DNA from: Minisyncoccota bacterium
GTDB taxonomy: Bacteria; Patescibacteriota; Minisyncoccia; UBA6257; GWB1-50-10
Length of the DNA: 64,000 bases
Reading direction: 5' to 3'
NCBI GenBank assembly: GCA_020059915.1
Contig: JAGVBB010000003.1
Coordinates: 233,625-297,624 of the forward strand
Shown: positions 39,048 to 60,931 of the stretch, piece by piece
How positions within the stretch are numbered: position 1 is the first letter of the stretch
Layout: each line of letters starts with the position of its first letter
Notes under the pieces: generated by a model
What the model was told of the DNA's origin: nothing
Seen by the model: only the letters and a program-made list of their open reading frames with translations
Database searches by the model: none
Position numbers and translations under genes: made by a program

Positions 39048-39050
39048 AGT

Positions 39051-42000: not shown

Positions 42001-42713
42001 GCAACATGGAGTAAAGACGCAGGAGATTGTGTTCCAATACCAACATTTCCTGCATTTGTTATTGTCGTACGATATTGTGATGTATTGTCATTATAAAATT
42101 GCAGACCGGATCCCGTCGCACCAATTTGCCACGATGATCCTGTTGATCCAATTTTTATAAATGAAGCGGATGTTCCTGTTTGAAAACGAGAAAGCACGGC
42201 AGATGTTCCGCTATATACATGCAGTGGGGCTGTTGGGTTTGTTGTTCCAACACCAATATTTGTTCCATTGTTGTAAAGTGTTGAATCACCAAACCATCCA
42301 GATCCAGTATTTCTTAATGTCTGCCCAGATGTTCCTGAACCAACTCCTCCTGCAATAGTAAAGTCTGCATAGGATTTTGTTGAAATATCAGAAGCGATTT
42401 GCGGTTCTCCAATGGTGAGTGGATTTACAAAATATCCAGCACCCTGCACATGCAATGGGTATTGAGGATTTGTTGTGTTTATACCAATCTTATCCCCTGA
42501 AGTATTTATATATATGATTCCGTCTCCTACTGAAATATCATATGCACTCCGTGCATTCAAATACAATGGTGCATACCACGATTCAACAGAATTACTATCA
42601 ATGGTAACGCTTTGTGCATACACTGATGAAAACGAAAACACAAAACACAACATAAATATGCTCAAAAATAAAATTCTATATGTACTTATATGCGTTTGTA
42701 TGTTCATTTTCAT
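39051..42713 (-). CDS. giant secreted modular surface protein 2 (tail-fibre-like repeats, two-Cys tandem repeats, Fn3, discoidin-like domain, C-terminal fibrinogen-related domain)
   Basis: Likely start MKMNIQTH... (signal peptide); the ORF track start at 42752 overlaps the upstream gene. The C-terminus DGTYWIDPNGGSTSDAFRAYCDMTTDGGGWTLV is a strong FReD signature. The mid-region ITFDFGSAITITEARY...YQWRGSTNNSTWTDIS is discoidin/F5-8C-like. Confidence 0.8.
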   Translation of the reverse strand: MKMNIQTHISTYRILFLSIFMLCFVFSFSSVYAQSVTIDSNSVESWYAPLYLNARSAYDISVGDGIIYINTSGDKIGINTTNPQYPLHVQGAGYFVNPLTIGEPQIASDISTKSYADFTIAGGVGSGTSGQTLRNTGSGWFGDSTLYNNGTNIGVGTTNPTAPLHVYSGTSAVLSRFQTGTSASFIKIGSTGSSWQIGATGSGLQFYNDNTSQYRTTITNAGNVGIGTQSPASLLHVAGTGNFSSPVLISTTTAAGHAASKAYVDALAVSMWVSSSTNTYTVPSGNIGIGTNSPGAKLDVMGTVKMSSFQLGTSATAGNILIANASGVGTWQSIANVGNAYGTSVMKLRNPITLIMNSFTWETNSPTSVTCPTGYTKWFDQSYAYWYADLSGNVSYEGACYNADTTTDIFSWKTMTSPNSVVCPTGYTRWVNTSYYGYGIYSSQAYYSGVCYKGSPTTAFNWESYTGLGTPTSLTCPTGYTKWFDSNAQWYSSGSGYYSYVGACYNTSATNDYFPWKSTSPTSLTCPTGYTKWYPSDIVYGPGNNQYYSGVCYKGNPTSFIWDAYTGGNMANNTCPTGYTKWYDANAKWRTGNSYDAYTAACISNTATGADAFNIETMVASDTVTCPTGYTKYKSGQFAYKRGSSVQAWDATCYKTFDATVCPSCPSGWSETTCQTVLTNGYDVKEKICYKTDSAVTTMQITKKGSSQSISCPSAAWAPAMSATNVAGNTELACYFACSEGMTAPDVPTSPSATGASQSINLSWTAPSGGGVCSQPETYNIYRSLTSGSGFSLVTSGIAGTTYSDTSITTSATSTYTQTQSIGNRTSLITLLSDNLWSYSGYPNTNMIDGNTGTIAYLQTTSFSGQSITFDFGSAITITEARYTWGGGGAQTGNYQWRGSTNNSTWTDISAVYTAPGGVAQPSYFGDLSANTTAYRYYKLVAVSGTGYNNGGIAEIEFKILGSGTYPTYYYKISSVNSGGESAQSSEVSAVPLSDPDGSSQTFAGISCKVIKTAFPSKTDGTYWIDPNGGSTSDAFRAYCDMTTDGGGWTLVAGIDSANANHRQTTEQSGWSTKSTWTQDDKGKFSDTVINQIRTASGSLGIFRFYCSPYNATTFHDRTNWTWNSYDRDTTQRGWWVSWTNYASYPTNPDCLAACGDNYCSGVGTGYTGNSPAVGGRNPSGICNGPHYQYPYQAYTGYDSYPVNGCGSASSRGYGRLWIK
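40500..41630 (-). repeat. intragenic tandem array encoding two-Cys repeats (paralogous to 36830-38000 and 44820-45900)
   Basis: ggtatatcctgttgggcaggt / ggtatatcccgttgggcaggt words at about 40975, 41125, 41275, 41440 and 41590. Confidence 0.7.
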
Positions 42714-42723
42714 AGTTTTTATA

Positions 42724-46923: not shown

Positions 46924-46983
46924 GTATCCTCTTATATTATTATACTATATCAATTTCCTCCGTGATATAATAAATATAAGAAT

Positions 46984-47475
46984 ATGAACGAGCAGACAAA
47001 AAAAATAAGTATATTCGGTGCTGTAGCTATAATACTTCTTATAGTTCTTGTATATACACTCCCCGAAAATGCCAATGAGCAGAAAAAAACTGCAGAAACA
47101 CAAAAAATGCCAGAGACAATTGTCAGGGATTTTTACAATTGGTATAAAGAACAAACAATCGGTGTTTTGGATGATGGGGAAACAATAGTAAACCTCGCAA
47201 AAGAAAAGGGATTTGTAACACAAGAATTTGCCATATCAGCAATGTTCCATCCCCTTGTTGTGTCAAAAAAAGCAGATGTAATTATTTGTGCATCAAAAAA
47301 AGATAACACAGCTTTTCCTAATATATTTATACCATTCCCAACAGCGAGTTCAACGGAGATAGTAAGAGTTGAGGCGGCATCCCCAATACAAAATCACAAA
47401 ATAAATATTTTATTTAATACAAAAGAGAAAAAAATAATATCAATAACCTGTCCAGTAATTCCAAATCTTGAATAA
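46984..47475 (+). CDS. membrane-anchored hypothetical protein
   Basis: N-terminal TM, 163 aa; divergent from the giant-protein operon. Confidence 0.5.
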   Translation: MNEQTKKISIFGAVAIILLIVLVYTLPENANEQKKTAETQKMPETIVRDFYNWYKEQTIGVLDDGETIVNLAKEKGFVTQEFAISAMFHPLVVSKKADVIICASKKDNTAFPNIFIPFPTASSTEIVRVEAASPIQNHKINILFNTKEKKIISITCPVIPNLE

Positions 47476-47480
47476 AAAAA

Positions 47481-48188
47481 TCAGCTACTAAGCTGATTTT
47501 TTTTAATTAATTCCTCAAATTTATCCCTATATAATTTAGACTCTTTTATGTCTATATCTTTGTAAACCTCTGAAAGCATAAGATAAAAATCTGGGTATGT
47601 TGGGACCTGTGAAATTCCATATTTAAAAACAGAAATTGCTTTTATATTATCCCCTTTTTGGACATGAATTCTACCAAGAAAAGTATATGGCGCAGGACTT
47701 TTAGAATCACTCAATCTAGCTATATCAATCGCTTTATTATAAGACTTAATTGCCTCATCTAGATTGTTCTGATCCTCAGCAAGGCGCCCTTTTTGTATAT
47801 AAAAGTCGAGATCATCAGAAGACACTAAAGAAATATTTTCTAAAGCTTTCTGAGCATTTGCATAGTCTTTTTCTGCCAATGATTTTATAAATTCTTGTTT
47901 ATTGATATCTATTTTTTCCTGAATAGCTATCAACTGTTTTCCTTCTTCAATATCCAAAACAACAGTATTAGTTGTTGAAAGTTTTAATGGAACAGAATTT
48001 TTTTGTAATATCACTTCATTAGCTTTTTGCTTTATTTCTTCATAAGCACGCGCCTCCTCGGAATTAATGATGATTCTCTTTTCAACCGAAAAATTTTCTT
48101 TATTTCGCATAAAAAAGAGAACGGTAAAACTAGCTACAAAGAAAAGAAAAATTATAATTATTAAAATTTTATTTTTATCATTAATCAT
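47481..48188 (-). CDS. membrane-anchored TPR-repeat protein
   Basis: N-terminal TM, then 3-4 TPR-like 34-aa helical repeats (AEKDYANAQKALENI, LDEAIKSYNKAIDIA). Confidence 0.6.
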   Translation of the reverse strand: MINDKNKILIIIIFLFFVASFTVLFFMRNKENFSVEKRIIINSEEARAYEEIKQKANEVILQKNSVPLKLSTTNTVVLDIEEGKQLIAIQEKIDINKQEFIKSLAEKDYANAQKALENISLVSSDDLDFYIQKGRLAEDQNNLDEAIKSYNKAIDIARLSDSKSPAPYTFLGRIHVQKGDNIKAISVFKYGISQVPTYPDFYLMLSEVYKDIDIKESKLYRDKFEELIKKNQLSS

Positions 48189-48190
48189 AA

Positions 48191-50641
48191 TTATTTACAT
48201 AAATAGGTGCCACCAATACTTCCAGAGATATTTCCACTATAGTTCACAAAAGCAGTACATTCTACTGCGGAAGTGAAAACACGAAAGTCTGTTCCAATTT
48301 GACAAACTGTTGTCTGCCCCACATCACCACATGGAAAAATTTGAGAACCGGCCGTACAACCAACATTGGAACCAGAGTAACAAGTTGATCCACCTGGCAT
48401 TCGATACCAAGCATAAAAAAGACTTCCAGGAGCATATTGTGTTCCAGCAGACGAAGTTATAGCTCCATCACAATTATAATCAAAACTTCCATCACCACGG
48501 TTTGTAGAGAATGAAGAAGCTTGTCCAGGTCGCGCGTTTGCATTTGAATCATAACAGTCAGAATTATTTACAACATATCCAGCTGGTGGTGTTGGACTTG
48601 CTGAAGTAGTCGAAACTGAAGGATTTCCATATCCATCGCCATCTACATCACGATAGTAGGTATATGAGGGGGTGACGGTAAGCGTTGTGTTATATGTTTG
48701 TGATTCTGAACTTCCAGTAAACCCAATATTACTCACAGACATAGTAACAGAAAGATTGTATGTTCCCGGTGTTGCGCCCGCAGGAATAATAAAATCAACT
48801 GGGTGTGAGGCAGTGCCCCCCGCGGCTACATAATAACTACTCGGTCCACAATTCGGAAAGTTGTAACACGTCGTTCCCGAAGGAAGTCCACTAATTGAAG
48901 AGACAGTAAGTGGATATGAAACTGGATCACCACTCAAATCAGAACGTGTATGTGTAAACCCACCACTAACAGTTCCACCAACCGGAGCACTTCCCCCTGA
49001 AAATGAACCGGAAATACAATTTCCATAATTCGCACCCGCGTTCCCATCATTACAGTCTCTTGAATCGGTTGTGTATCCAGATGGAGCGGAATTTCCATAA
49101 CAAACACTTGTTGCCGCATCGGAATACGGATAACTTAATGTTGCCTTTCCACCATATCCATCACCATCAGCGTCCGGATAAAATGTTCCATTTCTCCACT
49201 TAGAAGCATCGGACGACGCACAATCTGAATTGTTATTTGAACACCAACCAGTTGTTATACAATCCCATGCTCCTCCATCATACCCAATACAAAATGGTTG
49301 AAGACTTCCAGCTCCATATCCATCATGATCCGAATCTAAATATTTTTGAACAATTCGCCAAACACCAGCGGACGTATCATCACAATCTGTCCCTAAAGAT
49401 GGATAGGTTGTGTGATATGGGCACGAAGTTGCGCAATATGACGAACCACTCCCAACAGTATATCCATCGGTATCATTATCTGTATAGCAGGTTCTATATG
49501 AAGAAACTGAATAATTATAATCATCGCAATCACTTCCCGGAGAAGCAGAAACACCAGGATTTGAAGAGCCTCCACAAAGATATCCATAATTACTCCCATA
49601 CACTCCATCTCCATCATTATCTAAATACCCTCCCCAATCTTGATAAGTCCAATAATCACTATCATTACAATCGCTTCCTGGACTGGTATTGCCAGCTGGG
49701 AGTGACGTACCAGAACAAATTGAACTTTGACTCGGACTATTATACCCATCCCCATCATTATCTGCATATCCACTCAAATATTGCCATACAGTTGCCGACC
49801 CATCATTACAATCAATATTAAACGAAGTAAGTGCTGACTTTCTTACTCTTCCTCCAGCACTACTCGTATATTGAGTGCTATTTGATGGGTATCCATCACT
49901 GTCTGCATCGCTCATATATAAATCACCCTGTTGGATACTTCCTCCAGATCCCAACACAATTTTTCCTCCGTTGCTCAACGTGATTGACTTCCCCGCATTC
50001 CAAACAAACGTACCATTTACTGTGAGTGTCGCATTTGCATCAATAGCAACATTTCCGTTATCAACCCCATCAACACCACTGATGGTACACGACGCACCAG
50101 CATTGTTCGTCGTCATACTCCAATTTCCTGAAAGGGCTATACCGCACGCATCTGACCATGCAATATCAAAAAAATCTGAATTACCCGCATTGTCTTCTGC
50201 AACAAAACGAGTGGTATATCGCGTGTCATGTGTATCTTCAACAATCCAACTTCCCCTCCAAATATTTGATCCCTCATTATTAAGCGCTACCTCTTGTGTT
50301 TTTGTATCAGTAGTAATAACTGCTTTTACAGACTTAATACCAGACTCTGCAGAAACTTCAATCATAAACGTCTGCATGTCCCCCAAATGAACATCCGGAG
50401 GATCTATCTCCCCTTTTATAAATTTGATAGCATTCTCATCTGCAGATGCAACACTAAATTCATATATACCCTGTGGCAATGTCCACTCTTTTCCATCTTT
50501 ATTCACCAAAATGCGATCTTTTTGTTCAATAGCACGCTTTCCAAAAAAAGAAGGGAGAGAAAGAAATGCAATCACAAAAACCGCGAAAAAGAACACGATG
50601 AGTCCTGCAATATGCGGTTTTTCCTGCACGAATTTTTTCAT
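48191..50641 (-). CDS. membrane-anchored surface protein with MopE-like Cys/Asp repeats (DxDxDGYG calcium-binding-type motifs)
   Basis: 816 aa with an N-terminal TM and about 8 repeats of C.D.D....PG..E.CDG.DNDGDGY (DADSDGYPS, DNDGDGYNS, DVDGDGYGNPS). Confidence 0.65.
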   Translation of the reverse strand: MKKFVQEKPHIAGLIVFFFAVFVIAFLSLPSFFGKRAIEQKDRILVNKDGKEWTLPQGIYEFSVASADENAIKFIKGEIDPPDVHLGDMQTFMIEVSAESGIKSVKAVITTDTKTQEVALNNEGSNIWRGSWIVEDTHDTRYTTRFVAEDNAGNSDFFDIAWSDACGIALSGNWSMTTNNAGASCTISGVDGVDNGNVAIDANATLTVNGTFVWNAGKSITLSNGGKIVLGSGGSIQQGDLYMSDADSDGYPSNSTQYTSSAGGRVRKSALTSFNIDCNDGSATVWQYLSGYADNDGDGYNSPSQSSICSGTSLPAGNTSPGSDCNDSDYWTYQDWGGYLDNDGDGVYGSNYGYLCGGSSNPGVSASPGSDCDDYNYSVSSYRTCYTDNDTDGYTVGSGSSYCATSCPYHTTYPSLGTDCDDTSAGVWRIVQKYLDSDHDGYGAGSLQPFCIGYDGGAWDCITTGWCSNNNSDCASSDASKWRNGTFYPDADGDGYGGKATLSYPYSDAATSVCYGNSAPSGYTTDSRDCNDGNAGANYGNCISGSFSGGSAPVGGTVSGGFTHTRSDLSGDPVSYPLTVSSISGLPSGTTCYNFPNCGPSSYYVAAGGTASHPVDFIIPAGATPGTYNLSVTMSVSNIGFTGSSESQTYNTTLTVTPSYTYYRDVDGDGYGNPSVSTTSASPTPPAGYVVNNSDCYDSNANARPGQASSFSTNRGDGSFDYNCDGAITSSAGTQYAPGSLFYAWYRMPGGSTCYSGSNVGCTAGSQIFPCGDVGQTTVCQIGTDFRVFTSAVECTAFVNYSGNISGSIGGTYLCK

Positions 50642-50647
50642 GCGTGT

Positions 50648-51889
50648 TTATTTATTATTTTTGTAATATGTATCCAGATTCAAACCCTCCCAATCGCTAC
50701 TTGAATAATTAGTCCAATCTTTTGCATCAAATCGTGGAGCAGTTAGACGATAACTTATTTCTAATTTTGAATTTTGAATTTCTAATTTTGAATTAGGAAT
50801 ACCGAATATCACAATCTTTTTGTTTTGTTCGTCTTTTTGATACCATACTTTGCCATCAAAGTTTGGAGTAAGAAGCACAGACACATGCTTCAATCCATTT
50901 TTTTCTACATCAATAGTATGTGCAAATAACCACACATCACTTCCTTTTTCTTTATTGTTTAAATCAATAGTATATGAATATAAATTCCCATTCAAAGTTG
51001 CAACAAGTGTAGCAACGTCACTGAGCTCTTCTTTCACACCACCAACCATTCCAGGGTTGTATGTTGCATATCGCTTCCCTTCTATGGTGTAAACTGGATC
51101 AAATGTCACCCCATCAATCTTGTTTGCAATAATATCTGCCGCCGCTGTTCCCTCATCTGCATAGATTTGTCCAGCAACTTGAAGTTTATATGTTGGATTC
51201 GTTATACCAATACCTACCCTTCCAGAACTATCTACATTTAAACGCCATGCACCAGTATGCCAAAAGCCAAATGCAGAGGTCCCAGTGTTATCTAAGGATC
51301 CTATAAACCTGTCTCCACTCCCGGAAGAGTCTGTAATCCAAATTCCAGCACTTCCATTAGAACCCTGTCTTATTCTAATTCTATCTGCAATATCTAATTT
51401 ATATCCAGGAGTTACTCCAATACCAACACTTCCATCTCCCGCAAAAACAACTGGATATGATGTATTCCCAAACATTCTAACTCCATTCCCTCCAGCAAAT
51501 TGCATTTCAATAAAACCATCGGTTCTGTTTATTTGGCTGGCATTCATGGTAAAGGCGCCACCGGCACCAACCTGAAGAACACCCGCAATAGTCGTGGTTC
51601 CTACAACATATAATGGTGAAGTTGGATTTGTTGTTCCAATACCAACATAGGTTGCCGCTTGTGGATAAATCTTTGTACTTGTTGCAGTCCATCCCCCACC
51701 CCCAATCGCTGATGCGCTATCAAGCGTTGAGCTGTCTGGAAATCGAATAACTTTTCCTGGCGAAAGAATAATATCTTTATCAATAGTAAGTGAGTTCTGT
51801 GCATATACAACGGCAACACCACTCAAGATCACGACACCCAAAAATAAGAGCGCTCCCGAAAACAATTTTTTGCGCAAAAAATGTTTCAT
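50648..51889 (-). CDS. secreted tail-fibre-like repeat protein with a C-terminal domain shared with 55488..59504
   Basis: Likely start MKHFLRKKLF (signal peptide); the ORF track start 51913 uses GTG. Contains VGIGTTNPTSPLYVVG, VGIGVTPGYKLDI and VGIGITNPTYKLQVAG repeats. C-terminal DPVYTIEGKRYATYNPGMVGGVKEE...EKGSDVWLF matches the C-terminus of the 1338-aa protein. Confidence 0.7.
   Translation of the reverse strand: MKHFLRKKLFSGALLFLGVVILSGVAVVYAQNSLTIDKDIILSPGKVIRFPDSSTLDSASAIGGGGWTATSTKIYPQAATYVGIGTTNPTSPLYVVGTTTIAGVLQVGAGGAFTMNASQINRTDGFIEMQFAGGNGVRMFGNTSYPVVFAGDGSVGIGVTPGYKLDIADRIRIRQGSNGSAGIWITDSSGSGDRFIGSLDNTGTSAFGFWHTGAWRLNVDSSGRVGIGITNPTYKLQVAGQIYADEGTAAADIIANKIDGVTFDPVYTIEGKRYATYNPGMVGGVKEELSDVATLVATLNGNLYSYTIDLNNKEKGSDVWLFAHTIDVEKNGLKHVSVLLTPNFDGKVWYQKDEQNKKIVIFGIPNSKLEIQNSKLEISYRLTAPRFDAKDWTNYSSSDWEGLNLDTYYKNNK
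50758..50799. repeat. 21-nt tandem duplication inside the CDS (encodes NSKLEIQ NSKLEIS) with similarity to repeat-element flanks
   Basis: tttctaattttgaatt ttgaa tttctaattttgaatt. Confidence 0.5.
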
Positions 51890-51920
51890 ATCTATAGAAT
51901 TAGTATAACACACTGCAATA

Positions 51921-52080
51921 AACTCTAATATCTAAAAACTAAATCCTAAACAAACCTGTCTGCCGATAGGTAGATTCAAATGACCAAAACTCAAAATATT
52001 TAGAACATTTGGATTTTGATATTGTTTAGAGCTTAGCCTGCCTGTCCGGTAGGCAGGAATTAGTGCTTAGAGTTTAATAA
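51921..52080. repeat. palindromic IVS-like repeat element, copy 1 (upstream of 50648..51889)
   Basis: aaactctaatatctaaa...caaaactcaaaatatttagaacatttggattttgatattgtttagagcttag CCTGCCTGTCCGGTAGGCAGG aattagtgcttagagtttaataaaa; the core hairpin is at 52037-52057. Confidence 0.8.
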
Positions 52081-52081
52081 A

Positions 52082-52100
52082 AAAGCCCTTTTGGGCTTTT
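52082..52100 (-). terminator. terminator GCCC-AAAA-GGGC plus U-run for the 52101..52658 gene
   Basis: Hairpin at 52085-52096 abuts the stop codon. Confidence 0.7.
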
Positions 52101-52658
52101 TTATTCTACTATCATCTTCCCCACCTCTCCCCTTCCTGGATGTCCAGGAACATCACAATGATATGCATACGTTCCTTTTTTCGTCGGTGCGTTGAACGTA
52201 ATGAGTCTCGCAGGATCACCAGGACCAACACCAACCGCTACTGCAGAAAGTGATGGATCATCAAACATAAATAAGTGAGTTCCACTATCTCCCGCAGAAA
52301 CAAGTAAGTGCGTCACTGCTCCCGCCTTTACTGTAAATTGTGAGGGGGTGATTCCTGTTGCTGAAATTTTTATATCTATCGCTTCTGAAGGAACAGATGC
52401 CTTGTCTGTTATAGGAAGTGATTCTTGTGGTGCCTCTGGTGACATTGGCGCAACATCGTTTCGTGCTGCCTTTCCTTCTGGTGTTACCACAACACCCTCA
52501 ACACTCACCGCACTCGCACCAGGTGCTGCAACATTACTCGGTTTGTATGTCTGCTCTTGTTGCGTTGGCTCGCTGAAACTTCCCGTGATCGCAAGCGCTA
52601 CCACAATGGCAATAACAACAACCGCAAATATAATCCAAATAATTGTTTTCTTTTCCAT
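52101..52658 (-). CDS. membrane-anchored cupredoxin-like (type-1 copper) protein
   Basis: N-terminal TM, Pro/Ser/Glu-rich linker, then a C-terminal beta-sandwich with His (GTHLFMF), YHCDVPGH and GKM, i.e. an H-C-H-M ligand set. Confidence 0.7.
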   Translation of the reverse strand: MEKKTIIWIIFAVVVIAIVVALAITGSFSEPTQQEQTYKPSNVAAPGASAVSVEGVVVTPEGKAARNDVAPMSPEAPQESLPITDKASVPSEAIDIKISATGITPSQFTVKAGAVTHLLVSAGDSGTHLFMFDDPSLSAVAVGVGPGDPARLITFNAPTKKGTYAYHCDVPGHPGRGEVGKMIVE

Positions 52659-52673
52659 AAGTTAATTATAACA

Positions 52674-52818
52674 AAAACTCTAATATCTAAACCCTAAATT
52701 CTAAACAAATTTAAATGACCAAAACTCAAAATATTTAGAACATTTGGATTTTGATATTGTTTAGAGCTTAGACCTGCCTGTCCGGTAGGTAGGAATTCGT
52801 GCTTAGAGTTTAATAAAA
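52674..52818. repeat. palindromic IVS-like repeat element, copy 2 (upstream of 52101..52658)
   Basis: Nearly identical to copy 1. The core at 52773-52793 has one substitution that keeps pairing only as G-U on the plus-strand transcript. Confidence 0.8.
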
Positions 52819-52839
52819 CAAGCCATTAGGCTTGTTTTA
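52819..52839 (-). terminator. terminator CAAGCC-UAAU-GGCUUG plus U-run for 52840..54273
   Basis: Hairpin directly after the stop codon. Confidence 0.7.
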
Positions 52840-54273
52840 TTATCGTTTCATTTTAAAGTCCAATCTCATTGATTTAAGGAACAATGAATACATCGGATTG
52901 GAATCTGGAGTATATTCCATCTTCCAGAATATTCGATTTGCTTCTTGATTCTTGAATGTTATTTCTTCCCCCACATTCACGCGTTGCCAATTGGTGCCAT
53001 CATTAGAAAGGAAAATAGATATATTTCCCGATTTTGTATAATCCGCAAATGTAACTGTTCCTTTTTGAACGGGAAGAATATTGTTGCTGATGTTTGCAGA
53101 GGCAACGGTGTACGATTTTGAATTATCAAATCCATAGTCATAAAAATTCCACGCCTCAACCCCAGTGTCGGCATCTGCATTGCAACGAAGCGCTCTATTT
53201 TCCACAACCCCGTCGCAAACCAATCTGCGAACGTTGCCCAACGAATTCAACGAGCTCATCAAGTTGACTGCCCCCTCAATTGAATTTGTCCCATTCTGAA
53301 ACAATTTTATGAACTTTATTTTCCCCGCTCCCTTGTTCCACACATACCACATTGCATCGTTCCCAAATCCAACTTTTGATATACCGGGGACAAACCCGCC
53401 ATCCATGAACCGCGTATTGAATATATTGGGAATTTCTACGGCACTCCCATCATTCAAAAACTGAAAAGCACGACCCTCATATCCCCCATACACCAACAAC
53501 CACCCACCATCATTTCCCCCAATACCAATCGTCCCAATATATTTTGAATCAAATAATTCTCCACTTCCTTTTATGTTTTTAAAATTGGAACCATCAAATG
53601 CATATACATAGGACTTAAAGATTCCATCTTCCTTGATAACCACCCCAACACGCCACCCTGAATCCAATGCAGAAACGGAAACGGTCATCAATGTTTTTGA
53701 TCTCACCTCTTCAGGGAGTTGTACCTCACTTGATCCTCGATATAGTCCCAACCCTTTTGCTACATAGCATTCTTTTTGTATGCACGCCTCTTCCGCAGAT
53801 ATTTGTTTGAATGCATCTGCTCGTCGCCACTCGTATTTTGGAGGGAGTGTGAACACACTCACTTCTCGATCGTGCCACAAGGTTGTCTGCACCTGATCTA
53901 CCCAGCCAAGCCCAGAAAAGAAGTCATGGAATGTTTGGTAGCTATATTCATCAGAAACTGCTTGCGGACCAAGTCCTGGAATATCAAGTTGGATCAGTGA
54001 TTTGGAAAGTTCTTTCTGTCTCATTTTCGACAATGTCTCTGTGGAGGACGCAATAATTGTCTTTTGTCCCGCAGTTGTCTGATCACCTTTCTGCACACTT
54101 ATAATTGCATTATCAACAATCTTTCTTTCAAGGAAGTTACGAACCGCTGTTGCTGCCAAAAAAAGAAATGTAAAAAAACCGATTGCAGCAATCATCACGC
54201 TGAAAGCGATTCCCAATCCTTCAAATACCTTCTTCCCCTCTTTTGTTATTTTCTTGAACGGCTCATGCTTCAT
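52840..54273 (-). CDS. membrane-anchored extracellular protein, unknown function
   Basis: 477 aa with an N-terminal TM; no family I recognise. Confidence 0.55.
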   Translation of the reverse strand: MKHEPFKKITKEGKKVFEGLGIAFSVMIAAIGFFTFLFLAATAVRNFLERKIVDNAIISVQKGDQTTAGQKTIIASSTETLSKMRQKELSKSLIQLDIPGLGPQAVSDEYSYQTFHDFFSGLGWVDQVQTTLWHDREVSVFTLPPKYEWRRADAFKQISAEEACIQKECYVAKGLGLYRGSSEVQLPEEVRSKTLMTVSVSALDSGWRVGVVIKEDGIFKSYVYAFDGSNFKNIKGSGELFDSKYIGTIGIGGNDGGWLLVYGGYEGRAFQFLNDGSAVEIPNIFNTRFMDGGFVPGISKVGFGNDAMWYVWNKGAGKIKFIKLFQNGTNSIEGAVNLMSSLNSLGNVRRLVCDGVVENRALRCNADADTGVEAWNFYDYGFDNSKSYTVASANISNNILPVQKGTVTFADYTKSGNISIFLSNDGTNWQRVNVGEEITFKNQEANRIFWKMEYTPDSNPMYSLFLKSMRLDFKMKR

Positions 54274-54302
54274 TTCTTTAATTGTAACAAAAACAATTAA
54301 AG

Positions 54303-54448
54303 AAACTCTAATATCTAAACTTTAAATTCTAAACAAATTCAAATAACCAAAACTCAAAATATTTGAAACATTTGGATTTTGATATTGTTTAGGATTTAGA
54401 CCTGCCTGTCCGGTAGGCAGGAATTAGTGCTTAGAGTTTAATAAAAAA
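54303..54448. repeat. palindromic IVS-like repeat element, copy 3 (upstream of 52840..54273)
   Basis: Same architecture as copies 1 and 2; core hairpin at 54401-54421. Confidence 0.8.
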
Positions 54449-54469
54449 TCCGCCTTTCGGCGGTATTTT
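54449..54469 (-). terminator. terminator CCGCC-GAAA-GGCGG plus U-run for the 54470 gene
   Basis: Hairpin abuts the stop codon. Confidence 0.7.
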
Positions 54470-54976
54470 TTATTTGACTATCATCTTCCCCACCTCTCCG
54501 TTATCTTCATGTCCTGGCAAATCACATCTGAATATATATTCTCCAGCTTTGTCTGGTGCTATGAAATTCACCGCACTTGTCTGTCCCGGCCCCGCGTTCA
54601 ATGCTACCGAACCAAGTGATGGATCTTTAAATGCAAATGTGTGTGATTTGTCTGTTGAGGTTATTGCAAGCGTTACCGTCTGTCCCCTGCTTACAGTAAA
54701 TTCACTCGGAGAAAATCCAGATGGGGAAATAGAAAGTTCAATGGTCCCTTCAGGAAGTTTTTCCCGAGCAACAGTGCTTGCCTGCGGAACCTCTGCATTG
54801 TTTGGAACGGGCGCACTCACCACGCCAGGGAGTGACTCCTCCGTATTTGTCACCGTCTCAACAATTTTCTTTGCAGAATCCGCCCCTCCGTTTGAAAACG
54901 CAAGAATAATGATTCCTAGTGCGACCACCACCCCCACAATAATCCAAATATATAATCTCTTTTTATGCTCTTCCAT
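54470..54976 (-). CDS. membrane-anchored cupredoxin-like (type-1 copper) protein, paralog of 52101..52658
   Basis: C-terminal HTFAFKD ... YIFRCDLPGHEDNGEVGKMIVK (H-C-H-M). The likely start MEEHKK is at 54976; the ORF track start 55066 overlaps the upstream gene. Confidence 0.7.
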   Translation of the reverse strand: MEEHKKRLYIWIIVGVVVALGIIILAFSNGGADSAKKIVETVTNTEESLPGVVSAPVPNNAEVPQASTVAREKLPEGTIELSISPSGFSPSEFTVSRGQTVTLAITSTDKSHTFAFKDPSLGSVALNAGPGQTSAVNFIAPDKAGEYIFRCDLPGHEDNGEVGKMIVK

Positions 54977-54991
54977 AATATCATTATACAC

Positions 54992-55480
54992 AAACTCTAA
55001 ATTCGAAAACCTAAACCCTAAACAAATTCTAATATCAAAAAAGATAAAACTATTTTGACTTCTCAATAATAGAACCGAATATCTTCATTAACTCTGTCGC
55101 CTCTTGTTTTAGTTCTTTTTGTTTCTCTTCGTCGTTTTGATTCACAAGAATAAGTGATAACCAATAAACACTTTCTTTTGCTTCTTTTCTACAAATTTTA
55201 ACTCTCATAACAAAATCTTTTTTACTTAGAGATTCGTTGGCTTCAATATAGTTAGCACCAACAGAACCCGCCGAACGAGCAAGCTGTTTTCCATATTCAA
55301 TAGTGGTGACCGATTTTGGAGCTTTATTTATTAAATCACGCACGTTTCGTGCAAAGATAAGCGTTCTCTCTTCAAGATCATATCCACCTTTTCTATTTTG
55401 AAATTCAACCATTTGAATTTTGAGATTGTTTAGAGTTTAGGCCTGCCTGTCCGGTAGGCAGGAATTAGTGCTTAGGGTTT
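54992..55480. mobile_element. copy 4 of the palindromic element, split into left (54992-55043) and right (55413-55480) halves by the embedded four-helix-bundle ORF
   Basis: The left half aaactctaaattcgaaaacctaaaccctaaacaaattctaatatcaaaa and right half ttgaattttgagattgtttagagtttagg CCTGCCTGTCCGGTAGGCAGG aattagtgcttagggttt together reconstitute copies 1-3, with the 363-nt ORF in place of the central loop. Confidence 0.7.
55050..55412 (-). CDS. four-helix-bundle protein (23S rRNA intervening-sequence protein family; same fold family as DGR Avd)
   Basis: 120 aa containing GSVGANYIEANESLSKKDFVMRVKICRKEAKESVYWLSL, characteristic of TIGR02436/PF05635. Confidence 0.75.
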   Translation of the reverse strand: MVEFQNRKGGYDLEERTLIFARNVRDLINKAPKSVTTIEYGKQLARSAGSVGANYIEANESLSKKDFVMRVKICRKEAKESVYWLSLILVNQNDEEKQKELKQEATELMKIFGSIIEKSK

Positions 55481-55487
55481 ACAGTTT

Positions 55488-58400
55488 TTATTTCTCCTTG
55501 AGAATAAACGATGGAGTTTCCTTTTGATCTTTGCTATATGTTGGCCACTCCTTCCAGTCATGGCGGTTACCAATAAGGCGATACGAAAATTCTGTCGGTT
55601 CATCTGCAAAGAATTTAATTGTTTTTCCGCTAATTATGTATCCCACACCAACCGTCGTCCCATACGGAGTTGTAATCGCTTGTACATTATCTTTTCCAAA
55701 ATCAACCGCCTGATACCAAAGCCACAAGTCGGAACCTCGTTCAATATTTGAGAAATCAATGACATATTGATACTCAGTTCCTCCAAATCCTAATTTCGAA
55801 CCTTGCCTACCGCCTGCCTGTCCGGTAGGCAGGGCAGACAGGTTTTGAATTTCTAAACAATTTTCTAAATCAGAATTCTCTAAACTATTTTGAGTTTTGA
55901 TATTTGAATTTTGGCATTGTTTAGAGTTTAGGGTTTCAGATTTAGAGTTTTGAAGAGTGAGTTGGCCTCGTCCAACGAACTCTTCTTTCACTCCTCCCGC
56001 AATTGAGGATGTATATGTTGCATATTTCTTTCCATCAATTTCATACAACGGGTCGATGGTCTGCACGGTAATTTTTCCAATAGAACCAATGTTTCCTCCA
56101 CTCAAAGTTATACTACTTGACGCATTCATCGTAAGATTTCCATTGATCGTCACCTGATTGTTAAACCATGATGTTCCTGATACATACAATCGATGAGTTC
56201 CTGGGTTTGTTGTGCCGACTGCAAGCTGTCCATTCATATAATTGATTCCCGTTCCATCAGATTGCACAGCACCAGCAAATTTTAATGATGTTCCCGTATT
56301 TGCAGGATCAATATAATAGGTGGGGTCGTTGTAGTCATAGTACTTGGTTGCACTGAGTGTATCAGTGAGTTGTCCCTGTCCAATAACATCAAGTTTGAGT
56401 GACGGACCTGCTCCACCAATGATTACTTTTCCTGTAGTGGCTGCAAGGGTTGAAGTACCCGATACATACATGGTGGCAAAGGATGCGGTTGAGGTTCCAC
56501 TTCCACCACTACCGAGAACAGAATCTACATATCCTTTTGTAGCAGCATGACCAGAATCACCTGGTGAACCAACAAAGATTGGATTTTCAAATTTAGCCGT
56601 TCCATTCACGTGAAGTAGATATGCGGGAGTGGTGGTACCGATACCGACATAACCACTTTCTCTAATGGACATTCTTTCTACTAAAGCTCCATCAACTATA
56701 GGATTTCTAACAAAAAACCCTAATCTTTGTTTATTGGTTATAGCATTGTTGTCTTCAATATTTATCCTTTTTATACCAACTGCATCAAAAAGATTAGTTG
56801 TAGCATTATAATAACCCCTAAATATAAGACCGCCATTTTCTCCACCAGTTGCATTTCGTTCTGAAAGATATATCTTTGCGGCATCGGCAGTTGCAGACGA
56901 AATTTCAAGTAACGATCCTGGATTTGTTGTTCCAATACCAACATTGCCATCCCCACTTATACTCATCGCATTCACCCAACTAAATGTCGATCCAGCAGTA
57001 CCGGTTGGTGCAACTTTGAAATCCATTGATCCAGCCGCATCTGAGTTCCAACCAATTCTCCCCGCACCACTAGCCAGAATGCGCTGCCACGCACCACCAC
57101 TATTAAAGAACGCATTGTTAACAATATAAGAATCTGCGGCAGAATCTCTTTGCATAATGTTAACAGGACCAAACATATTAAATTGATATCCTGCGTTTAC
57201 CGTTGAATAACCAGTTGAACCAACATGAAAACGTCCTTGTGGAGAAGCGTTCCCAATACCAGCGCGACCACTTGGAGTAACAGTAAATACCTCTCCACCG
57301 CCCGTTGAAGAATATGCGCGGATTAACAATGCTCCCGCATCACTTGAATAATTTTCTATATTTACAAGTTTTTGAGTTCCCACAGCTGTATTTTTTACTC
57401 TTAATAATTCATTTGTTGATGTGTCATATACTTCAAGTTTTGCGGCGGGGCTGGTTGCCCCAATACCAACCCTTCCATTGCCACCAGATGCGGAGAGAAA
57501 TGCAAAATTATTATTTGAATAAAAATTAGTAATAGCACTTGTTTGATCAATAGCAAATTGTCCAGTTCCATCTCCTATTGTAAAATCATTACCAGCATAG
57601 TTTGCTAGTGCTCCTATTTGTAATTTATTTGCGGGTGCCGTTGTCCCAATACCTACCCTCTCATTCGTCGCGTCAACTTTCAACACATTATTCGTACTTG
57701 CCGCTGCTTCAAATGTATAATTTCCTTTTCCTGCAGTGTATCCAAAGGTTCCTGCAGAGACATTACTTGCCCCCACATTTGTTGTCATTGTTCCCCCCGT
57801 TGTTATATTTCCCGAAACATACGCATTCCCCTGCACATGTAACGCCTGTGTCGGCGTTGATGTTCCAATCGCAACCCAATCGGTTGTGGTGGTGAGTGTC
57901 ACATAGGTCCCCGTTCGCGACCACCCCACAGAATTTCCCCCACCCCCCGCAGTTAACTGGATTGATCCATCAGGAAACTTGAACCCTCCTGTTGTTGACT
58001 CAACCACCCCCGCAACAGAAAGTTTTTGCGCTGGATTTGTAATACCTATCCCAACACTTCCATTAAAATATGATTTTGCAGAGCCAGTTGAATATACCGA
58101 ATAAAAATTATTTCCTCCATTATTTACATTAAGTTCAATACCAGAATTTGCTCCCGTTCCCGTTGATGTATTGGAAACCTTAATGCCAGATGTCTGCCAT
58201 GTTGGAGCACCACTTATATTGATATCAATTCCATAATTAATAACATCAGTTTGTGCATTTGTGGTAATTGCCAATTTTTGATTTGGATTTGTTATTCCAA
58301 TACCAACATTGCCCGTTGGGCTTATTGTCATTCTTTCTACTGGAATATCGTTTCCACTACCCGTTATACCAGTTCCTGATTTTGTAGCAAAAACAAGATA

Positions 58401-59504
58401 ATCCCGTTCGCTTCCAGCAGTATCATTTAATCTTGTACCAATCCATGCTTGTGGTGATCCATTGAATGTCGTTCCACCTTGATAATTTAATAAATGGTTG
58501 AATGCAATGCCTGAATAATAAGATCCGACTGTTGTGGACCTATCATGTAACGGGCCTAATTGTATGTTATATACATTTGAATTTATTGATATGTTTCCAG
58601 TACTCGGTCCCTCAATATGTGCACTTCCATTATATAAATGTAACTTTGCGCTTGGACTAGTTGTCCCAATGCCAACCTTTCCACCAGCCGGGTTTAATAA
58701 AAGTCCGTATTGAGTAGCGGATTGTAAGGTTGTATAACCAGTAGAACCATTATAAAGTTCAAGTGTTGCGTTGTAAGAATTTCCATTTGTCCCCCAACCA
58801 TTCCCTTGTCCAATTTTTCCACCATTCGATAACGCGATATCTCCAAAAACCTCCAATTTTTTACTTGGACTCATCACCCCAATTCCAACATTTCCCGCAA
58901 CATACAATCCGTTTGTTGGTAGCCTCGCAATTGAGGAGGTTCCCACACCAAGTGCGCTTGGAAATGCATAGTTCGTTGATTGGAACGCTCCCCCTGTGAT
59001 ACTCGACGGAGAGAGTTGCCCAACAAACGCCGCCTCGGTTTGTATACTTCCCCCAACATGCAAAGTTGAACTTGCTATCCCCACAGGACCAATACCAATG
59101 TTTCCATTTGGTTCAACAAAAAAACGTAATGCACCAGCAGAAAGTGCTGTTTCATCCCATAACGCCAACCGTCCATTTGGACGAGAATACCACACATATG
59201 TGTGTCCCCCCGTGGTAAGGTTCTTAAGTGCAATACCAGGATCAGATGTTGAAGCAACAGTAAATATTTTTCCAAAGCGCGCATTTGTCGGATCTCCCGT
59301 TGGTGTTGCCAAACTAGTTCCAAAACCAATGTTTCCACTCGCATCAAGCTGTAACACACCACCCCCCTGTCCCGCAGGAAGTGCCGGACCAGTGAACGCA
59401 AAAACAAAACCACCAGCAAACAAACTTGAAGCAAGTGTAAAAACTGTTATTCCAATAATTATGCGTGAGTACTTCAAAATAGTAGTGTAAAGTTCAAACT
59501 TCAA
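55488..59504 (-). CDS. giant secreted tail-fibre-like repeat protein (1338 aa) with an in-frame repeat-element insertion in its C-terminal domain
   Basis: Signal peptide and at least 20 repeats of the G.VGIGTT.P..KL.V type (NVGIGVMSPSKKLEVFG, KVGIGTTSPSAKLHLYNG, RVGIGATSPAAKLEVYD ...). The C-terminal domain is homologous to that of 50648..51889 but interrupted by 55 aa encoded by the repeat element. Confidence 0.75.
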   Translation of the reverse strand: MKFELYTTILKYSRIIIGITVFTLASSLFAGGFVFAFTGPALPAGQGGGVLQLDASGNIGFGTSLATPTGDPTNARFGKIFTVASTSDPGIALKNLTTGGHTYVWYSRPNGRLALWDETALSAGALRFFVEPNGNIGIGPVGIASSTLHVGGSIQTEAAFVGQLSPSSITGGAFQSTNYAFPSALGVGTSSIARLPTNGLYVAGNVGIGVMSPSKKLEVFGDIALSNGGKIGQGNGWGTNGNSYNATLELYNGSTGYTTLQSATQYGLLLNPAGGKVGIGTTSPSAKLHLYNGSAHIEGPSTGNISINSNVYNIQLGPLHDRSTTVGSYYSGIAFNHLLNYQGGTTFNGSPQAWIGTRLNDTAGSERDYLVFATKSGTGITGSGNDIPVERMTISPTGNVGIGITNPNQKLAITTNAQTDVINYGIDINISGAPTWQTSGIKVSNTSTGTGANSGIELNVNNGGNNFYSVYSTGSAKSYFNGSVGIGITNPAQKLSVAGVVESTTGGFKFPDGSIQLTAGGGGNSVGWSRTGTYVTLTTTTDWVAIGTSTPTQALHVQGNAYVSGNITTGGTMTTNVGASNVSAGTFGYTAGKGNYTFEAAASTNNVLKVDATNERVGIGTTAPANKLQIGALANYAGNDFTIGDGTGQFAIDQTSAITNFYSNNNFAFLSASGGNGRVGIGATSPAAKLEVYDTSTNELLRVKNTAVGTQKLVNIENYSSDAGALLIRAYSSTGGGEVFTVTPSGRAGIGNASPQGRFHVGSTGYSTVNAGYQFNMFGPVNIMQRDSAADSYIVNNAFFNSGGAWQRILASGAGRIGWNSDAAGSMDFKVAPTGTAGSTFSWVNAMSISGDGNVGIGTTNPGSLLEISSATADAAKIYLSERNATGGENGGLIFRGYYNATTNLFDAVGIKRINIEDNNAITNKQRLGFFVRNPIVDGALVERMSIRESGYVGIGTTTPAYLLHVNGTAKFENPIFVGSPGDSGHAATKGYVDSVLGSGGSGTSTASFATMYVSGTSTLAATTGKVIIGGAGPSLKLDVIGQGQLTDTLSATKYYDYNDPTYYIDPANTGTSLKFAGAVQSDGTGINYMNGQLAVGTTNPGTHRLYVSGTSWFNNQVTINGNLTMNASSSITLSGGNIGSIGKITVQTIDPLYEIDGKKYATYTSSIAGGVKEEFVGRGQLTLQNSKSETLNSKQCQNSNIKTQNSLENSDLENCLEIQNLSALPTGQAGGRQGSKLGFGGTEYQYVIDFSNIERGSDLWLWYQAVDFGKDNVQAITTPYGTTVGVGYIISGKTIKFFADEPTEFSYRLIGNRHDWKEWPTYSKDQKETPSFILKEK
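55788..55952. repeat. palindromic IVS-like repeat element, copy 5, inserted in-frame within the 55488..59504 CDS
   Basis: Core CCTGCCTGTCCGGTAGGCAGG at 55812-55832 plus the long palindrome. The 165-nt insertion encodes QNSKSETLNSKQCQNSNIKTQNSLENSDLENCLEIQNLSALPTGQAGGRQGSKLGF between conserved domain residues. Confidence 0.75.
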
Positions 59505-59606
59505 AGTGCAAAATTGTATCTAAAAACCTTTAAACCTTTTAATTTCAGCTTTGCGTTTTGAGATTTGCTCTTTGATTTTTTTTACTAGACTCCTCCTTAT
59601 TTCATT

Positions 59607-59640
59607 ATACCAAAAAACCGCCCACAGGCGGTTTTCAATT
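59607..59640 (-). terminator. terminator CCGCC-CACA-GGCGG plus U-run
   Basis: 3' of the 59706..60299 gene. Confidence 0.6.
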
Positions 59641-59705
59641 TTAATTTATAAATTTCAAATCTCTATTACTCCGACATCTAGCCCCTAACCCCCAATCACT
59701 ATCCC

Positions 59706-60299
59706 CTATTTTTGATTCACAATAAGCGTTCCCGTCACCTCTTTCCCACAAATATCTTTACAATAGAATCCATATTTTCCAAACGGATATCCTTGGAATT
59801 GAATCTTCATTGATGTCCCCTTCTCAATGGTTCGGTACACCCCAAAATCAGGGAAGAACACATTGTATTTGGCATCCACTGCAGTGAAGTTGATGTCAAT
59901 CACATCTCCCTCATTCACCACCAAGGTTGATGGAACATATTTCCCTCCCTCACCCTTCATTTCAAATTGTCTGAATGCACTTGGTCCAGTTTCCAAAACA
60001 TTTGTTGGTACTGCAACATCTGTTGGTGTTGATGACGCGCCAACCTCAGGTGTCTTTATGGTTTCATCAACAACAATACGAGTCCCCCCCTCAACGGTGG
60101 GAAGTGCATTCTCCTGTTCTGGACGAAACGTGTCGGTCCCTGGAGTATTCACTCCTGATGTGGTTGTCGTACTGATTGAAACCTCTGGCATCGTGCTCTT
60201 CTTTCCAAACCATCCCTGACTCGAACCTATTGAAAGAATAGCGACAAGCACCACAACAACCGCGACCCCGATGATAACTTTTGTTTGTTTTTGATCCAT
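59706..60299 (-). CDS. membrane-anchored cupredoxin-fold paralog with degenerate metal site (CKDICG, no His/Met ligands)
   Basis: Same architecture as 52101 and 54470 (TM, Pro/Thr-rich linker, beta-sandwich), but the site reads ...YNVFF...FYCKDICGKEVTGTLIV. Confidence 0.6.
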   Translation of the reverse strand: MDQKQTKVIIGVAVVVVLVAILSIGSSQGWFGKKSTMPEVSISTTTTSGVNTPGTDTFRPEQENALPTVEGGTRIVVDETIKTPEVGASSTPTDVAVPTNVLETGPSAFRQFEMKGEGGKYVPSTLVVNEGDVIDINFTAVDAKYNVFFPDFGVYRTIEKGTSMKIQFQGYPFGKYGFYCKDICGKEVTGTLIVNQK

Positions 60300-60406
60300 G
60301 GCTCTTATATATAGTATAACACGTTAGAATTACAAAATTTCGAATTTCAAGTTTCAAATTAAGGACCCAATTCTCCCATTTGAAATTTGTAAATTATAAA
60401 TTGAAA

Positions 60407-60931
60407 TTACCTTGGTAGTACAATAAACTTCCCGCTTATCTTTTCCCCATTGGGACATTTGTCACGACATTCAAACAAGAACGTTCCCACAGTATCAGGA
60501 ATGAACGTTATCTGTTTTGTTTCTCCTTGTCCGACAAGCGCATAGGTTCCGTATTGCGGAATTGAAAAATCATACTCTCCATCAACTCCCGTTACTTTTA
60601 CTTTCACAAAATCATCTTTTTTTACCGTAAGATTGGTTTCCGAAAATCCATTTTTTGAGATTTGTATCTCATAGACTCCAAATGAACTATTTGATCCGCC
60701 AACAGCATATGTTACTTCTGGTTTTGTTGGTGTGGCATTTTCCGGAACGTCTGGAACAAATTCAACGCGTTGTGTTCCTGTTGCAGAAACATCGTTTGGA
60801 ACTTTTTCATTTTGTATCGGTTCATTGGTTACTTCCTTTTGTTGTGTCACCCCAAAAATTACCACCACAATCACAAATACAACTAATGCTCCAAGAATCA
60901 ACCATTGTTTTTTTGTCATCTGCATTTCCAT
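60407..60931 (-). CDS. membrane-anchored cupredoxin-fold paralog with degenerate metal site (CRDKCPNG)
   Basis: TM, linker, beta-sandwich ending FLFECRDKCPNGEKISGKFIVLPR. Confidence 0.6.
   Translation of the reverse strand: MEMQMTKKQWLILGALVVFVIVVVIFGVTQQKEVTNEPIQNEKVPNDVSATGTQRVEFVPDVPENATPTKPEVTYAVGGSNSSFGVYEIQISKNGFSETNLTVKKDDFVKVKVTGVDGEYDFSIPQYGTYALVGQGETKQITFIPDTVGTFLFECRDKCPNGEKISGKFIVLPR

Follow-up and report, generated by a model that had tools for sequence, protein, structure and literature searches.

Membrane-anchored cupredoxins with variant putative metal sites in a conserved surface-fibre gene cluster of Patescibacteria

Why would a bacterium of the Patescibacteria keep four cupredoxin genes among the genes of its giant surface proteins, and are these cupredoxins electron carriers? 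The question is raised by a stretch of 64,000 nucleotides from a Minisyncoccota bacterium (contig JAGVBB010000003.1, positions 233,625 to 297,624), called the window below. Four of its open reading frames (ORFs), all on the minus strand, were named P1 (52101..52658, 185 amino acids (aa)), P2 (54470..54976, 168 aa), P3 (59706..60299, 197 aa) and P4 (60407..60931, 174 aa); P1 and P2 belong to family A, P3 and P4 to family B. The original prediction gave P1 and P2 a complete type-1 copper ligand set and P3 and P4 a degenerate CxxxCG site, and considered an electron-transfer module, copper handling or a non-redox use of the fold. The ORFs, their coordinates, the C-terminal strings and the CxxxC motifs that it listed are exact, and so is its division into two site types, with no His or Met ligands in P3 and P4. 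The sites themselves are read differently here. With about even confidence, we regard the four proteins as copper- or thiol-handling subunits of a surface-fibre apparatus, with variant sites, and not as plastocyanin-type respiratory carriers.

Are the four proteins cupredoxins at all? The Pfam model Cupredoxin_1 (PF13473, curated cut-off 27 bits) gives 34.4 bits for P1, 42.4 bits for P2 and 34.6 bits for P3, and P2 also passes the cut-off of Copper-bind (PF00127; 24.8 versus 21.2 bits). P4 stays under the PF13473 cut-off with 23.1 bits, yet hhalign shows its homology to the P3 family along the entire protein (99.9%, E 3e-33), and the P4 family profile also matches nitrosocyanin and the CuA domain of NosZ. 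No NCBIfam model reached its cut-off for P1-P4, the sub-threshold matches being CopI, rusticyanin, CoxB, NosZ and nitrosocyanin. Homology also links family A to family B (hhalign 98.2%, E 4.5e-14), with an identity of 41% between P1 and P2 and of about 24% between P3 and P4. When all ORFs of the window were scanned with a hidden Markov model built from all homologues, P1-P4 were the sole matches. Orthologues of P1 are P0012-14 and an ORF of the related locus L007 (19428-20045).

The structure models agree with the profiles. AlphaFold (AF2) models were made for P2 and P3 from alignments of 46 and 50 sequences, and each shows an N-terminal helix, a low-confidence linker of about 25 residues and a confident β-sandwich. 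The mean predicted local distance difference test (pLDDT) score is 79.8 for P2 and 84.5 for P3, while in the domains it reaches 91-97 and 90-98 per block of 10 residues. Both models superpose on solved cupredoxins. In Foldseek searches the P2 model matches Bacillus anthracis Cupredoxin_1 4hcf with a template modelling (TM) score of 0.86 and a root-mean-square deviation of 1.7 Å, and further matches the CuA domains of NosZ, auracyanin and amicyanin; the best matches of the P3 model are the CuA domains of NosZ and COX2, and CupA follows with a TM score of 0.79. Foldseek probabilities of P2 and P3 to 4hcf, NosZ, COX2, auracyanin and CupA are all 1.00. The transmembrane anchors lie at about residues 5-29 of P1, residues 8-28 of P2, 8-27 of P3 and 10-29 of P4, and the domains at about residues 90-185 of P1 (52104-52391), 72-168 of P2 (54473-54763) and 99-197 of P3. 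Thus P1-P4 are paralogous, N-terminally membrane-anchored single-domain cupredoxins of two homologous families, and fold, paralogy and anchors as first proposed are borne out by Pfam, hhalign and AlphaFold/Foldseek. The long stalk that had been assigned to all four holds in part, as a partly disordered linker. The 40 residues preceding the P3 domain (about residues 59-98, 60006-60125) are conserved (ALPTVEGGTR..TPE..VAVP) and have pLDDT >90, so that part of this "stalk" is an ordered extension of the domain.

Note that the start of P2 needs some care. A longer ORF with a TTG start (198 aa, 54470-55066) was rejected, since its extension is derived from a repeat and absent in homologues; the start is the ATG at 54976, and the homologues begin with MEEHKKR. 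The 30 extra residues (MRSQNSFIFFDIRICLGFRFSNLEF…) are a translated repeat element which overlaps the end of the neighbouring IVP gene described below, and automatic gene callers may mis-start P2 here.

What kind of metal site would P1 and P2 have? The putative ligands of P2 lie within 54494..54643 and are His112 (54641-54643), Cys151 (54524-54526), His156 (54509-54511) and Glu161 (54494-54496); those of P1, aligned to them, lie within 52125..52277 and are His128 (52275-52277), Cys168 (52155-52157), His173 (52140-52142) and Glu178 (52125-52127). All these codons were checked. In a profile-profile comparison by hhalign, poplar plastocyanin His37, Cys84, His87 and Met92 pair with P2 His112, Cys151, His156 and Glu161. 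HMMER alignments likewise place the ligand Met of auracyanin (…HYAGGMKGVMTV) and of NirK (…HRQAGMQGV) opposite Glu161, with 'GGMKG' and 'AGMQG' aligned to P2 'NGEVG', and the end of NosZ (…HMEMVGRMMVE) was aligned to that of P2 (…GHEDNGEVGKMIVK). The axial Met, five residues past the loop His, is thus replaced by Glu178 in P1 and Glu161 in P2. The Met of the P2 'GKM' string, Met165 (54482-54484), lies in the last β-strand (residues 162-167) four residues beyond the loop in the AF2 model; it belongs to the core, at a position where plastocyanin and rusticyanin have Val/Ile, and its counterpart Met182 of P1 (52113-52115) is also a non-ligand. Of the His-Cys-His-Met set that had been proposed, His, Cys and His therefore stand and the Met does not, because the axial position in the plastocyanin, auracyanin, NirK and NosZ alignments is Glu.

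Is the Glu a peculiarity of two proteins? A HMMER search over 1.84 billion representative proteins found 258 family-A relatives (clusters at 50% identity) at E<=1e-30; with the limit relaxed to E<=1e-10 there were 691. An alignment of 167 members was made from the best 150 representatives, further homologues and the two window proteins. Cys is present in 126/167, and among those His112 is kept in 124/126, His156 in 122/126 and Glu161 in 113/126; an axial Met appears in only 3/126, and 8/126 have a shorter loop with a Glu or lack the position. All four ligand positions are retained together in 107/167 members, and they are also lost together. Their association with Cys is strong in Fisher tests which ignore kinship but whose direction is unambiguous (His112 p=1e-21, His156 p=1e-12, Glu161 p=4.5e-18), while Met165 has no such association (p=0.45) and is kept in 40/41 of the Cys-less members. 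One relative, P0083 (CDVPGHASQGMTGSMIV), has Met exactly at the position of the P1/P2 Glu and retains the downstream Met as well, and the closest canonical relatives of the family are tandem cupredoxin arrays with C-x-VPGHKEAGMVG. By these counts and cases, the Glu is a family-wide replacement of the axial ligand. P1 and P2 thus have a type-1-like mononuclear His-Cys-His-Glu set of putative ligands, as read from the alignments, and a complete plastocyanin/amicyanin-type set has to be given up for them, the Glu being found throughout the family. Each of the two proteins has exactly one putatively extracytoplasmic Cys.

Natural axial variants of cupredoxins include Gln, Leu/Phe and His. A literature search, which was not exhaustive, found no natural cupredoxin described with an axial Glu. 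In azurin, the engineered Met121Glu variant has the lowest potential among the Cu-azurin series, 184 mV, and Fe-azurin is redox-active only with Met121Glu, with a potential of 320 mV (PMC12071310). In the AcoP variant M171A, a red copper centre arises when acetate takes the axial position (PMC10804444).

Some relatives of family A are longer proteins. Of P0066 (836 aa) and P0068 (535 aa), one has a type IX secretion system (T9SS) tail and three family-A-like domains, and another has two His-Cys-His-Glu domains with Fn3-like spacing modules; P0073, P0154 and P0184 carry canonical Met-type domains in tandem, linked by Ala/Pro. The long relatives were checked for fusions, and they showed tandem arrays, Fn3 spacers or a T9SS tail only, and none to domains of S477 (a neighbouring protein described below) or of the fibre proteins.

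P3 and P4 have a different site. They have no His in the whole protein, which rules out a CuA site as well as a type-1 site. What they keep is two Cys and a Tyr: Tyr145 (59865-59867), Cys180 (59760-59762) and Cys184 (59748-59750) in P3, within 59748..59867, and Tyr120 (60572-60574), Cys155 (60467-60469) and Cys159 (60455-60457) in P4, with codons checked. The P3 loop 'CKDICGKE' matches 'CSELCGKD' of COX2, the family profile reading 'yCkdaCgke' against 'QCSELCGKD' in COX2 4w9z, and both Cys of each protein align to the bridging Cys of COX2 and NosZ. In profile alignments Tyr145 falls on the CuA His of COX2 'DVIHAF' and on the ligand Glu60 of nitrosocyanin; comparison of families A and B places it at P2 His112. 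The distance from Tyr145 to Cys180, 35 residues, equals the His-Cys spacing of the Thermus CuA domain. The other His and Met positions of the CuA loop are occupied by Val/Thr in P3 and by Gly/Ile-type residues in P4. The best sequence matches of the P3 profile in the PDB are nitrosocyanin (6e-9) and CupA (2.7e-8), the latter with FPDFGV in common with P3, followed by COX2 and NosZ, and the P4 profile gives the same pattern with nitrosocyanin best (2.6e-7). The Cys pair is found in 57/57 complete family-B sequences, as CxxxC in 45 and as CxxC in 12, and the Tyr occupies the N-terminal His position in 54/56; in the P4 group CxxxC is found in 13/13 sequences. By homology, the P3/P4 site can be described as a putative CuA-type loop reduced to two thiolates plus a near-invariant Tyr. 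The label of a degenerate CxxxCG site was right as to the motif, and a COX2/NosZ CuA-type loop with both bridging Cys and a conserved Tyr at the His position describes it better.

On which side of the membrane are these domains? In family A, the transmembrane helix is flanked by 3.5 Lys/Arg residues N-terminally and by 1.5 C-terminally, and this difference favours a domain that faces outwards. Three further features make an extracytoplasmic position the likelier one: the N-terminus is short and basic and runs into a hydrophobic stretch, the linkers are of the Ser/Thr/Pro type, and the neighbouring secreted proteins contain Cys in even numbers. It is thus likelier that the domains of P1-P4 face outwards.

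The genes next to P1-P4 suggest where the proteins work. Along the minus strand the order is P4, P3, a 1338-aa giant, a 23S-rRNA-IVP/Avd-like gene, P2, S477, P1, S421, S816 and a TPR protein, so the cupredoxin genes are indeed interspersed with genes of giant surface proteins and with repeat elements, as the original prediction noticed. The giant (55488..59504) is a tail-fibre-like surface protein whose homologues take the same position in related loci, and it matches PHROG tail-fibre families with 1.3e-20 and 8e-15; S421 (50648-51913, 421 aa) is tail-fibre-like as well and also matches PHROG tail-fibre families. S477 (52840..54273) is an N-terminally anchored protein of 477 aa with two Cys pairs, and S816 (48191-50641) is a Cys-rich protein of 816 aa with 28 Cys. 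All are on the minus strand.

Is this arrangement conserved? A search of 185,579 GTDB species genomes gave 16 loci, all of them in metagenome-assembled genomes (MAGs) of Patescibacteria. Labels of homologues and loci are Paceibacterota, Parcubacteria, Jorgensenbacteria, Liptonbacteria and some Saccharibacteria. Members of the P3 family turned up in MAGs of Patescibacteria only; the T9SS-tailed relative of family A indicates that the Glu type is not strictly limited to them. The gene order is retained in the close relatives L001, L003, L004, L006 and L007. In distant lineages, with a P3 identity of 42-59%, the core is fibre, family A, S477-like, P3-like, fibre(s) and S816-like, often with a P4-like gene upstream, and homologues of the proteins encoded at 48191..51913 come after the P3-like gene in L010, L012, L014 and L017. 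Family-A, S477-like and P3-like genes stand beside tail-fibre-like giants in L001, L003, L007-L012, L014, L017, L018 and L020; S477 is placed between two cupredoxin genes in L007-L012, L014, L017, L018 and L020; and cluster genes abut or overlap in L014, L017 and L020. Families A and B are conserved members of a cell-surface gene cluster of Patescibacteria, and our literature search, which was not exhaustive, found no description of this cluster.

If the proteins were carriers, one would look for a redox partner nearby. No oxidase, NirK, cytochrome or copper ATPase was found in the window by Pfam annotation or in 21 related loci by signature scans, and no gene for an oxidase, NirK, NosZ, bc1 or a cytochrome that could serve as redox partner stands near P1-P4 in the window or these loci. 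Motif scans of the same sequences for P-type ATPases, haem-copper oxidase subunit I, CopZ, Sco and cytochrome c gave nothing credible. The DKTGT signature is absent from every ORF of the window and the 21 loci, and Pfam annotation of the window has no CopA/CopY-type genes. An ORF of 561 aa in L015, the one larger ORF among those with short H[CS]H matches that was examined further, has no Pfam match. An extracellular electron-transfer module therefore lacks support from context and from redox-partner signatures, and copper handling or a non-redox use of the fold, the other roles first considered, are the alternatives favoured by the evidence. The rest of the window encodes proteins with housekeeping roles (SecDF, Tgt/QueA, UvrABC, PPDK and a 2-hydroxyacid dehydrogenase), more giants and one membrane protein resembling CcdA/DsbD_TM (33088-33918; 29.9 bits versus a cut-off of 27.1). 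The latter would be a possible outward route for reducing equivalents, with no cytochromes in view; an ORF of 178 aa beside it proved not to be thioredoxin-like.

How could such proteins act on a surface fibre? P1 and P2 may each bind one copper in a carboxylate-stabilised, low-potential, Cu(II)-stabilised 'green/red' site like that of azurin Met121Glu. The Cys pair of P3 and P4, together with the Tyr, may form a bis-thiolate Cu(I) site similar to CupA S1 or to Sco, or else a redox-active disulfide. The set would then be an accessory of the surface-fibre apparatus that handles copper or thiols. Several observations weigh against this proposal. Any clustering of the P1/P2 ligands is putative and rests on homology to solved sites, and the Fisher tests on covariation take no account of phylogenetic relatedness. 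Both Cys and His of the site are lost in 41/167 family-A members, including those of L008, L009, L014 and L017; with a quarter of the family site-less, its core role cannot depend on metal. In the same four loci the P3-like and P4-like genes keep the Cys pair though family A has no site, so that serving as a chaperone for family A cannot be the sole role of P3 and P4. The positive-inside count is ambiguous for P3 and P4. The even-Cys-rich secreted neighbours point to an oxidising exterior, where a CxxxC pair would tend to form a disulfide. In addition, no copper transporter, copper regulator or known copper chaperone was seen in the window or the related loci, and terminator-like hairpins and a 150-nucleotide repeat part several genes of the cluster in the window, making co-transcription only putative.

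What else could P1-P4 be? It is doubtful, though it is the alternative we take most seriously, that the fold has a purely structural use, with the proteins as membrane anchors or adaptors of fibres, the family-A site vestigial or stabilising, and the P3/P4 disulfide structural. The tight conserved cluster with fibres and S477, the many family-A members without ligands and the disulfide-rich neighbours are all consistent with it, the ordered conserved extension before the P3 domain suggests protein-protein contacts, and ephrins (PMC6485061) and quinol-oxidase subunit II are precedents of copper-less cupredoxins. However, the four ligands are kept together (107/167) and lost together, which speaks for selection on a working site in those members that have one; in the cupredoxin fold a single Cys outside the cytoplasm, as presumed for P1 and P2, normally binds metal; and a near-invariant Tyr at a ligand position stands beside the Cys pair. 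Another explanation, which we hold to be unlikely, concerns P3 and P4 alone and makes them a thiol-disulfide relay that forms, reduces or isomerises disulfides of the Cys-rich fibres, possibly fed by the CcdA-like transporter. Both Cys are invariant while their spacing varies (12 CxxC versus 45 CxxxC), as is typical of redox-active pairs; the neighbours have 24-33 Cys each, and a DsbD_TM/CcdA-like gene exists in the window. In apo-CoxB the Cys pair of the CuA loop forms a disulfide that can be reduced, and nDsbD carries a redox-active pair on a β-sandwich. Against the relay, we know of no cupredoxin-fold oxidoreductase, the CcdA-like gene lies 26 kb away and is barely above its cut-off, and what ties P3 and P4 to their supposed substrates is gene proximity alone.

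Two further alternatives concern P1 and P2. Could they still be plastocyanin-like carriers on the outer face, which donate to a NirK or to some other terminal reductase whose gene would lie elsewhere in the genome? The type-1-like His-Cys-His core and the P2 score above the Copper-bind cut-off would fit, and single-domain cupredoxins next to NirK in the candidate phyla radiation (CPR) have been proposed as electron donors to it (PMC5581439; PMC12931201). However, the 64-kb window and the 21 related loci show no gene for NirK, an oxidase or a cytochrome and none that is quinone-linked, the conserved neighbours are surface fibres and not redox enzymes, the axial residue is Glu and not Met, and about 25% of family A is site-less while gene and context persist; we think this role improbable. 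More improbable still is that the His2-Cys-Glu set binds Fe(II)/Fe(III) in anoxic, copper-poor habitats. We know of no natural iron cupredoxin, the analogy is to one engineered protein and the copper-poor habitat is assumed. In its favour, a hard carboxylate suits Fe as well as Cu(II), and the iron form of azurin depends on Met121Glu for its redox activity (PMC12071310). The copper- or thiol-handling fibre subunit is the reading we keep.

The neighbours and intergenic sequences have features of their own. S477, the steadiest neighbour of the cupredoxin genes in Patescibacteria, has its Cys pairs at C164/C169 and C353/C364; it matches nothing in PHROG, and in Pfam and the PDB loose thresholds brought up no match to it, nor to S421, S816 and several small anchored neighbours. 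S816 contains repeated D-x-D-G-D-G-Y-G and C-x-D motifs; MopE-like copper-binding repeats were suspected there, and Pfam did not support them. The surface proteins encoded at 35679-50641, among them giants of 1122, 1233 and 1399 aa and the 816-aa protein, have many Cys in even numbers: 24, 28 and 28 in three, and 32 each in two others when one Cys of the N-terminal leader is excluded. In their C-terminal parts, the giants of 1122 and 1399 aa match phrog_22713 (1e-38 to 1e-40). Downstream of the cluster in L011 (11702-13619) and L017 (16893-18815) stand a pilin-like gene of 137-141 aa (…GQI[AT]LPFILLV…) and a gene of 496 aa, and next come genes whose N-termini look, by appearance, like those of Pth, LepB and HisS.

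A repeat of about 150 nucleotides, with the core hairpin GCCTGCCTGTCCGGTAGGCAGG flanked by short repeats of TTTAGAG type, occupies the intergenic gaps between cupredoxin and fibre genes (51933-52083, 52668-52818, 54296-54446, 55404-55481 and 55812-55951). One copy falls within the ORF of 1338 aa, in its 3' part, where it is read as in-frame coding sequence (…ALPTGQAGGRQG…). No Rfam family covers the intergenic repeat. P4 and P3 appear to form one unit, and P2 has its own terminator. The 23S-rRNA-intervening-sequence (IVP)/Avd-like gene (55050-55412), which encodes a four-helix bundle, is flanked by 48-nucleotide inverted repeats (54992-55039 and 55903-55950; 79% complementary) in a cassette-like manner. 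Genes of this kind recur at varying positions of the cluster in L003, L007, L010 and L012, and no reverse transcriptase was seen.

What would follow if the proposal holds? In a bolder form, which we consider rather unlikely, P1-P4 would be a dedicated extracellular metal-redox module of the surface-fibre apparatus, possibly for host attachment, with two undescribed natural site types, a His2-Cys-Glu site for copper or even iron and a CuA-derived Tyr-Cys2 site. Supposedly respiration-free episymbionts could then exchange electrons or copper with their surroundings or host, or alternatively carry out disulfide chemistry on fibres with a non-thioredoxin fold. Note that the axial carboxylate in blue copper sites has been studied mainly in engineered proteins. 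A natural axial-Glu family as large as this one would test the effect of the axial ligand on potential, colour and metal preference. CPR reconstructions label single-domain cupredoxins as 'plastocyanin' and as donors to NirK, a label which the ligands and gene context of family A do not support. The linked cupredoxins, the anchored protein of about 480 aa and the tail-fibre-like giants define a conserved surface cluster in organisms about whose machinery for host attachment little is known.

There is a further question, namely how these proteins compare with known cupredoxins. P1 and P2 share with type-1 blue copper proteins and Cupredoxin_1 (plastocyanin, amicyanin, auracyanin, rusticyanin, 4hcf) the fold, the homologous N-terminal His, Cys and loop His, and the C-terminal pattern C-x-x-P-G-H-x3-G-[axial]-x-G-K-h-h-V. 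They differ in the axial Glu, the tether of transmembrane helix and linker, the fibre-gene context and the site-less quarter of the family. Their expected first shell of two His, Cys and an axial carboxylate resembles that of azurin Met121Glu and of AcoP Met171Ala with acetate; the latter are laboratory variants, whereas the Glu of family A is natural and conserved. In the PDB, no sequence fits the P3 and P4 profiles better than nitrosocyanin, a red copper cupredoxin that has a carboxylate among its ligands. Its ligands are Cys, two His and a Glu, whereas P3 and P4 have no His and a second Cys, and its Glu takes an equatorial His position, whereas that of P1 and P2 is axial.

The CuA domains of COX2 and N2O reductase are the top structural matches of P3, which has the CxxxCG loop and the 35-residue spacing in common with them. 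Unlike CuA proteins, P3 and P4 lack both the His and the Met ligands, have one transmembrane helix instead of two and are accompanied by neither a subunit I nor a catalytic domain. Among anchored proteins, the one structurally nearest to P3 and P4 is CupA, the Cu(I) chaperone of Streptococcus pneumoniae, which has an N-terminal transmembrane helix, a cupredoxin domain, a His-free thiolate site and FPDFGV as well. CupA binds with Cys74, Cys111 and Met113/Met115, whereas P3 and P4 have the Tyr and CxxxC with no loop Met; Tyr145 of P3 is near the position of Cys74. CupA also acts in the cytoplasm, together with CopY and with CopA, a Cu-ATPase whose metal-binding domain is itself a cupredoxin, whereas P3 and P4 probably face outwards and have no such genes here. 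Sco proteins, with an N-terminal anchor, an extracytoplasmic CxxxC and a dual character as copper chaperone and thiol oxidoreductase, invite comparison with P3 and P4, but they have a thioredoxin fold and a His as third ligand and are non-homologous to them. Copper-less cupredoxins are found in quinol oxidase subunit II, in ephrins and in plant early-nodulin-like proteins, and the Cys-less family-A members of L008, L009, L014 and L017 are similar to these in keeping the fold after loss of the ligands. P1-P4 differ from all of them in that they keep their conserved candidate site residues.

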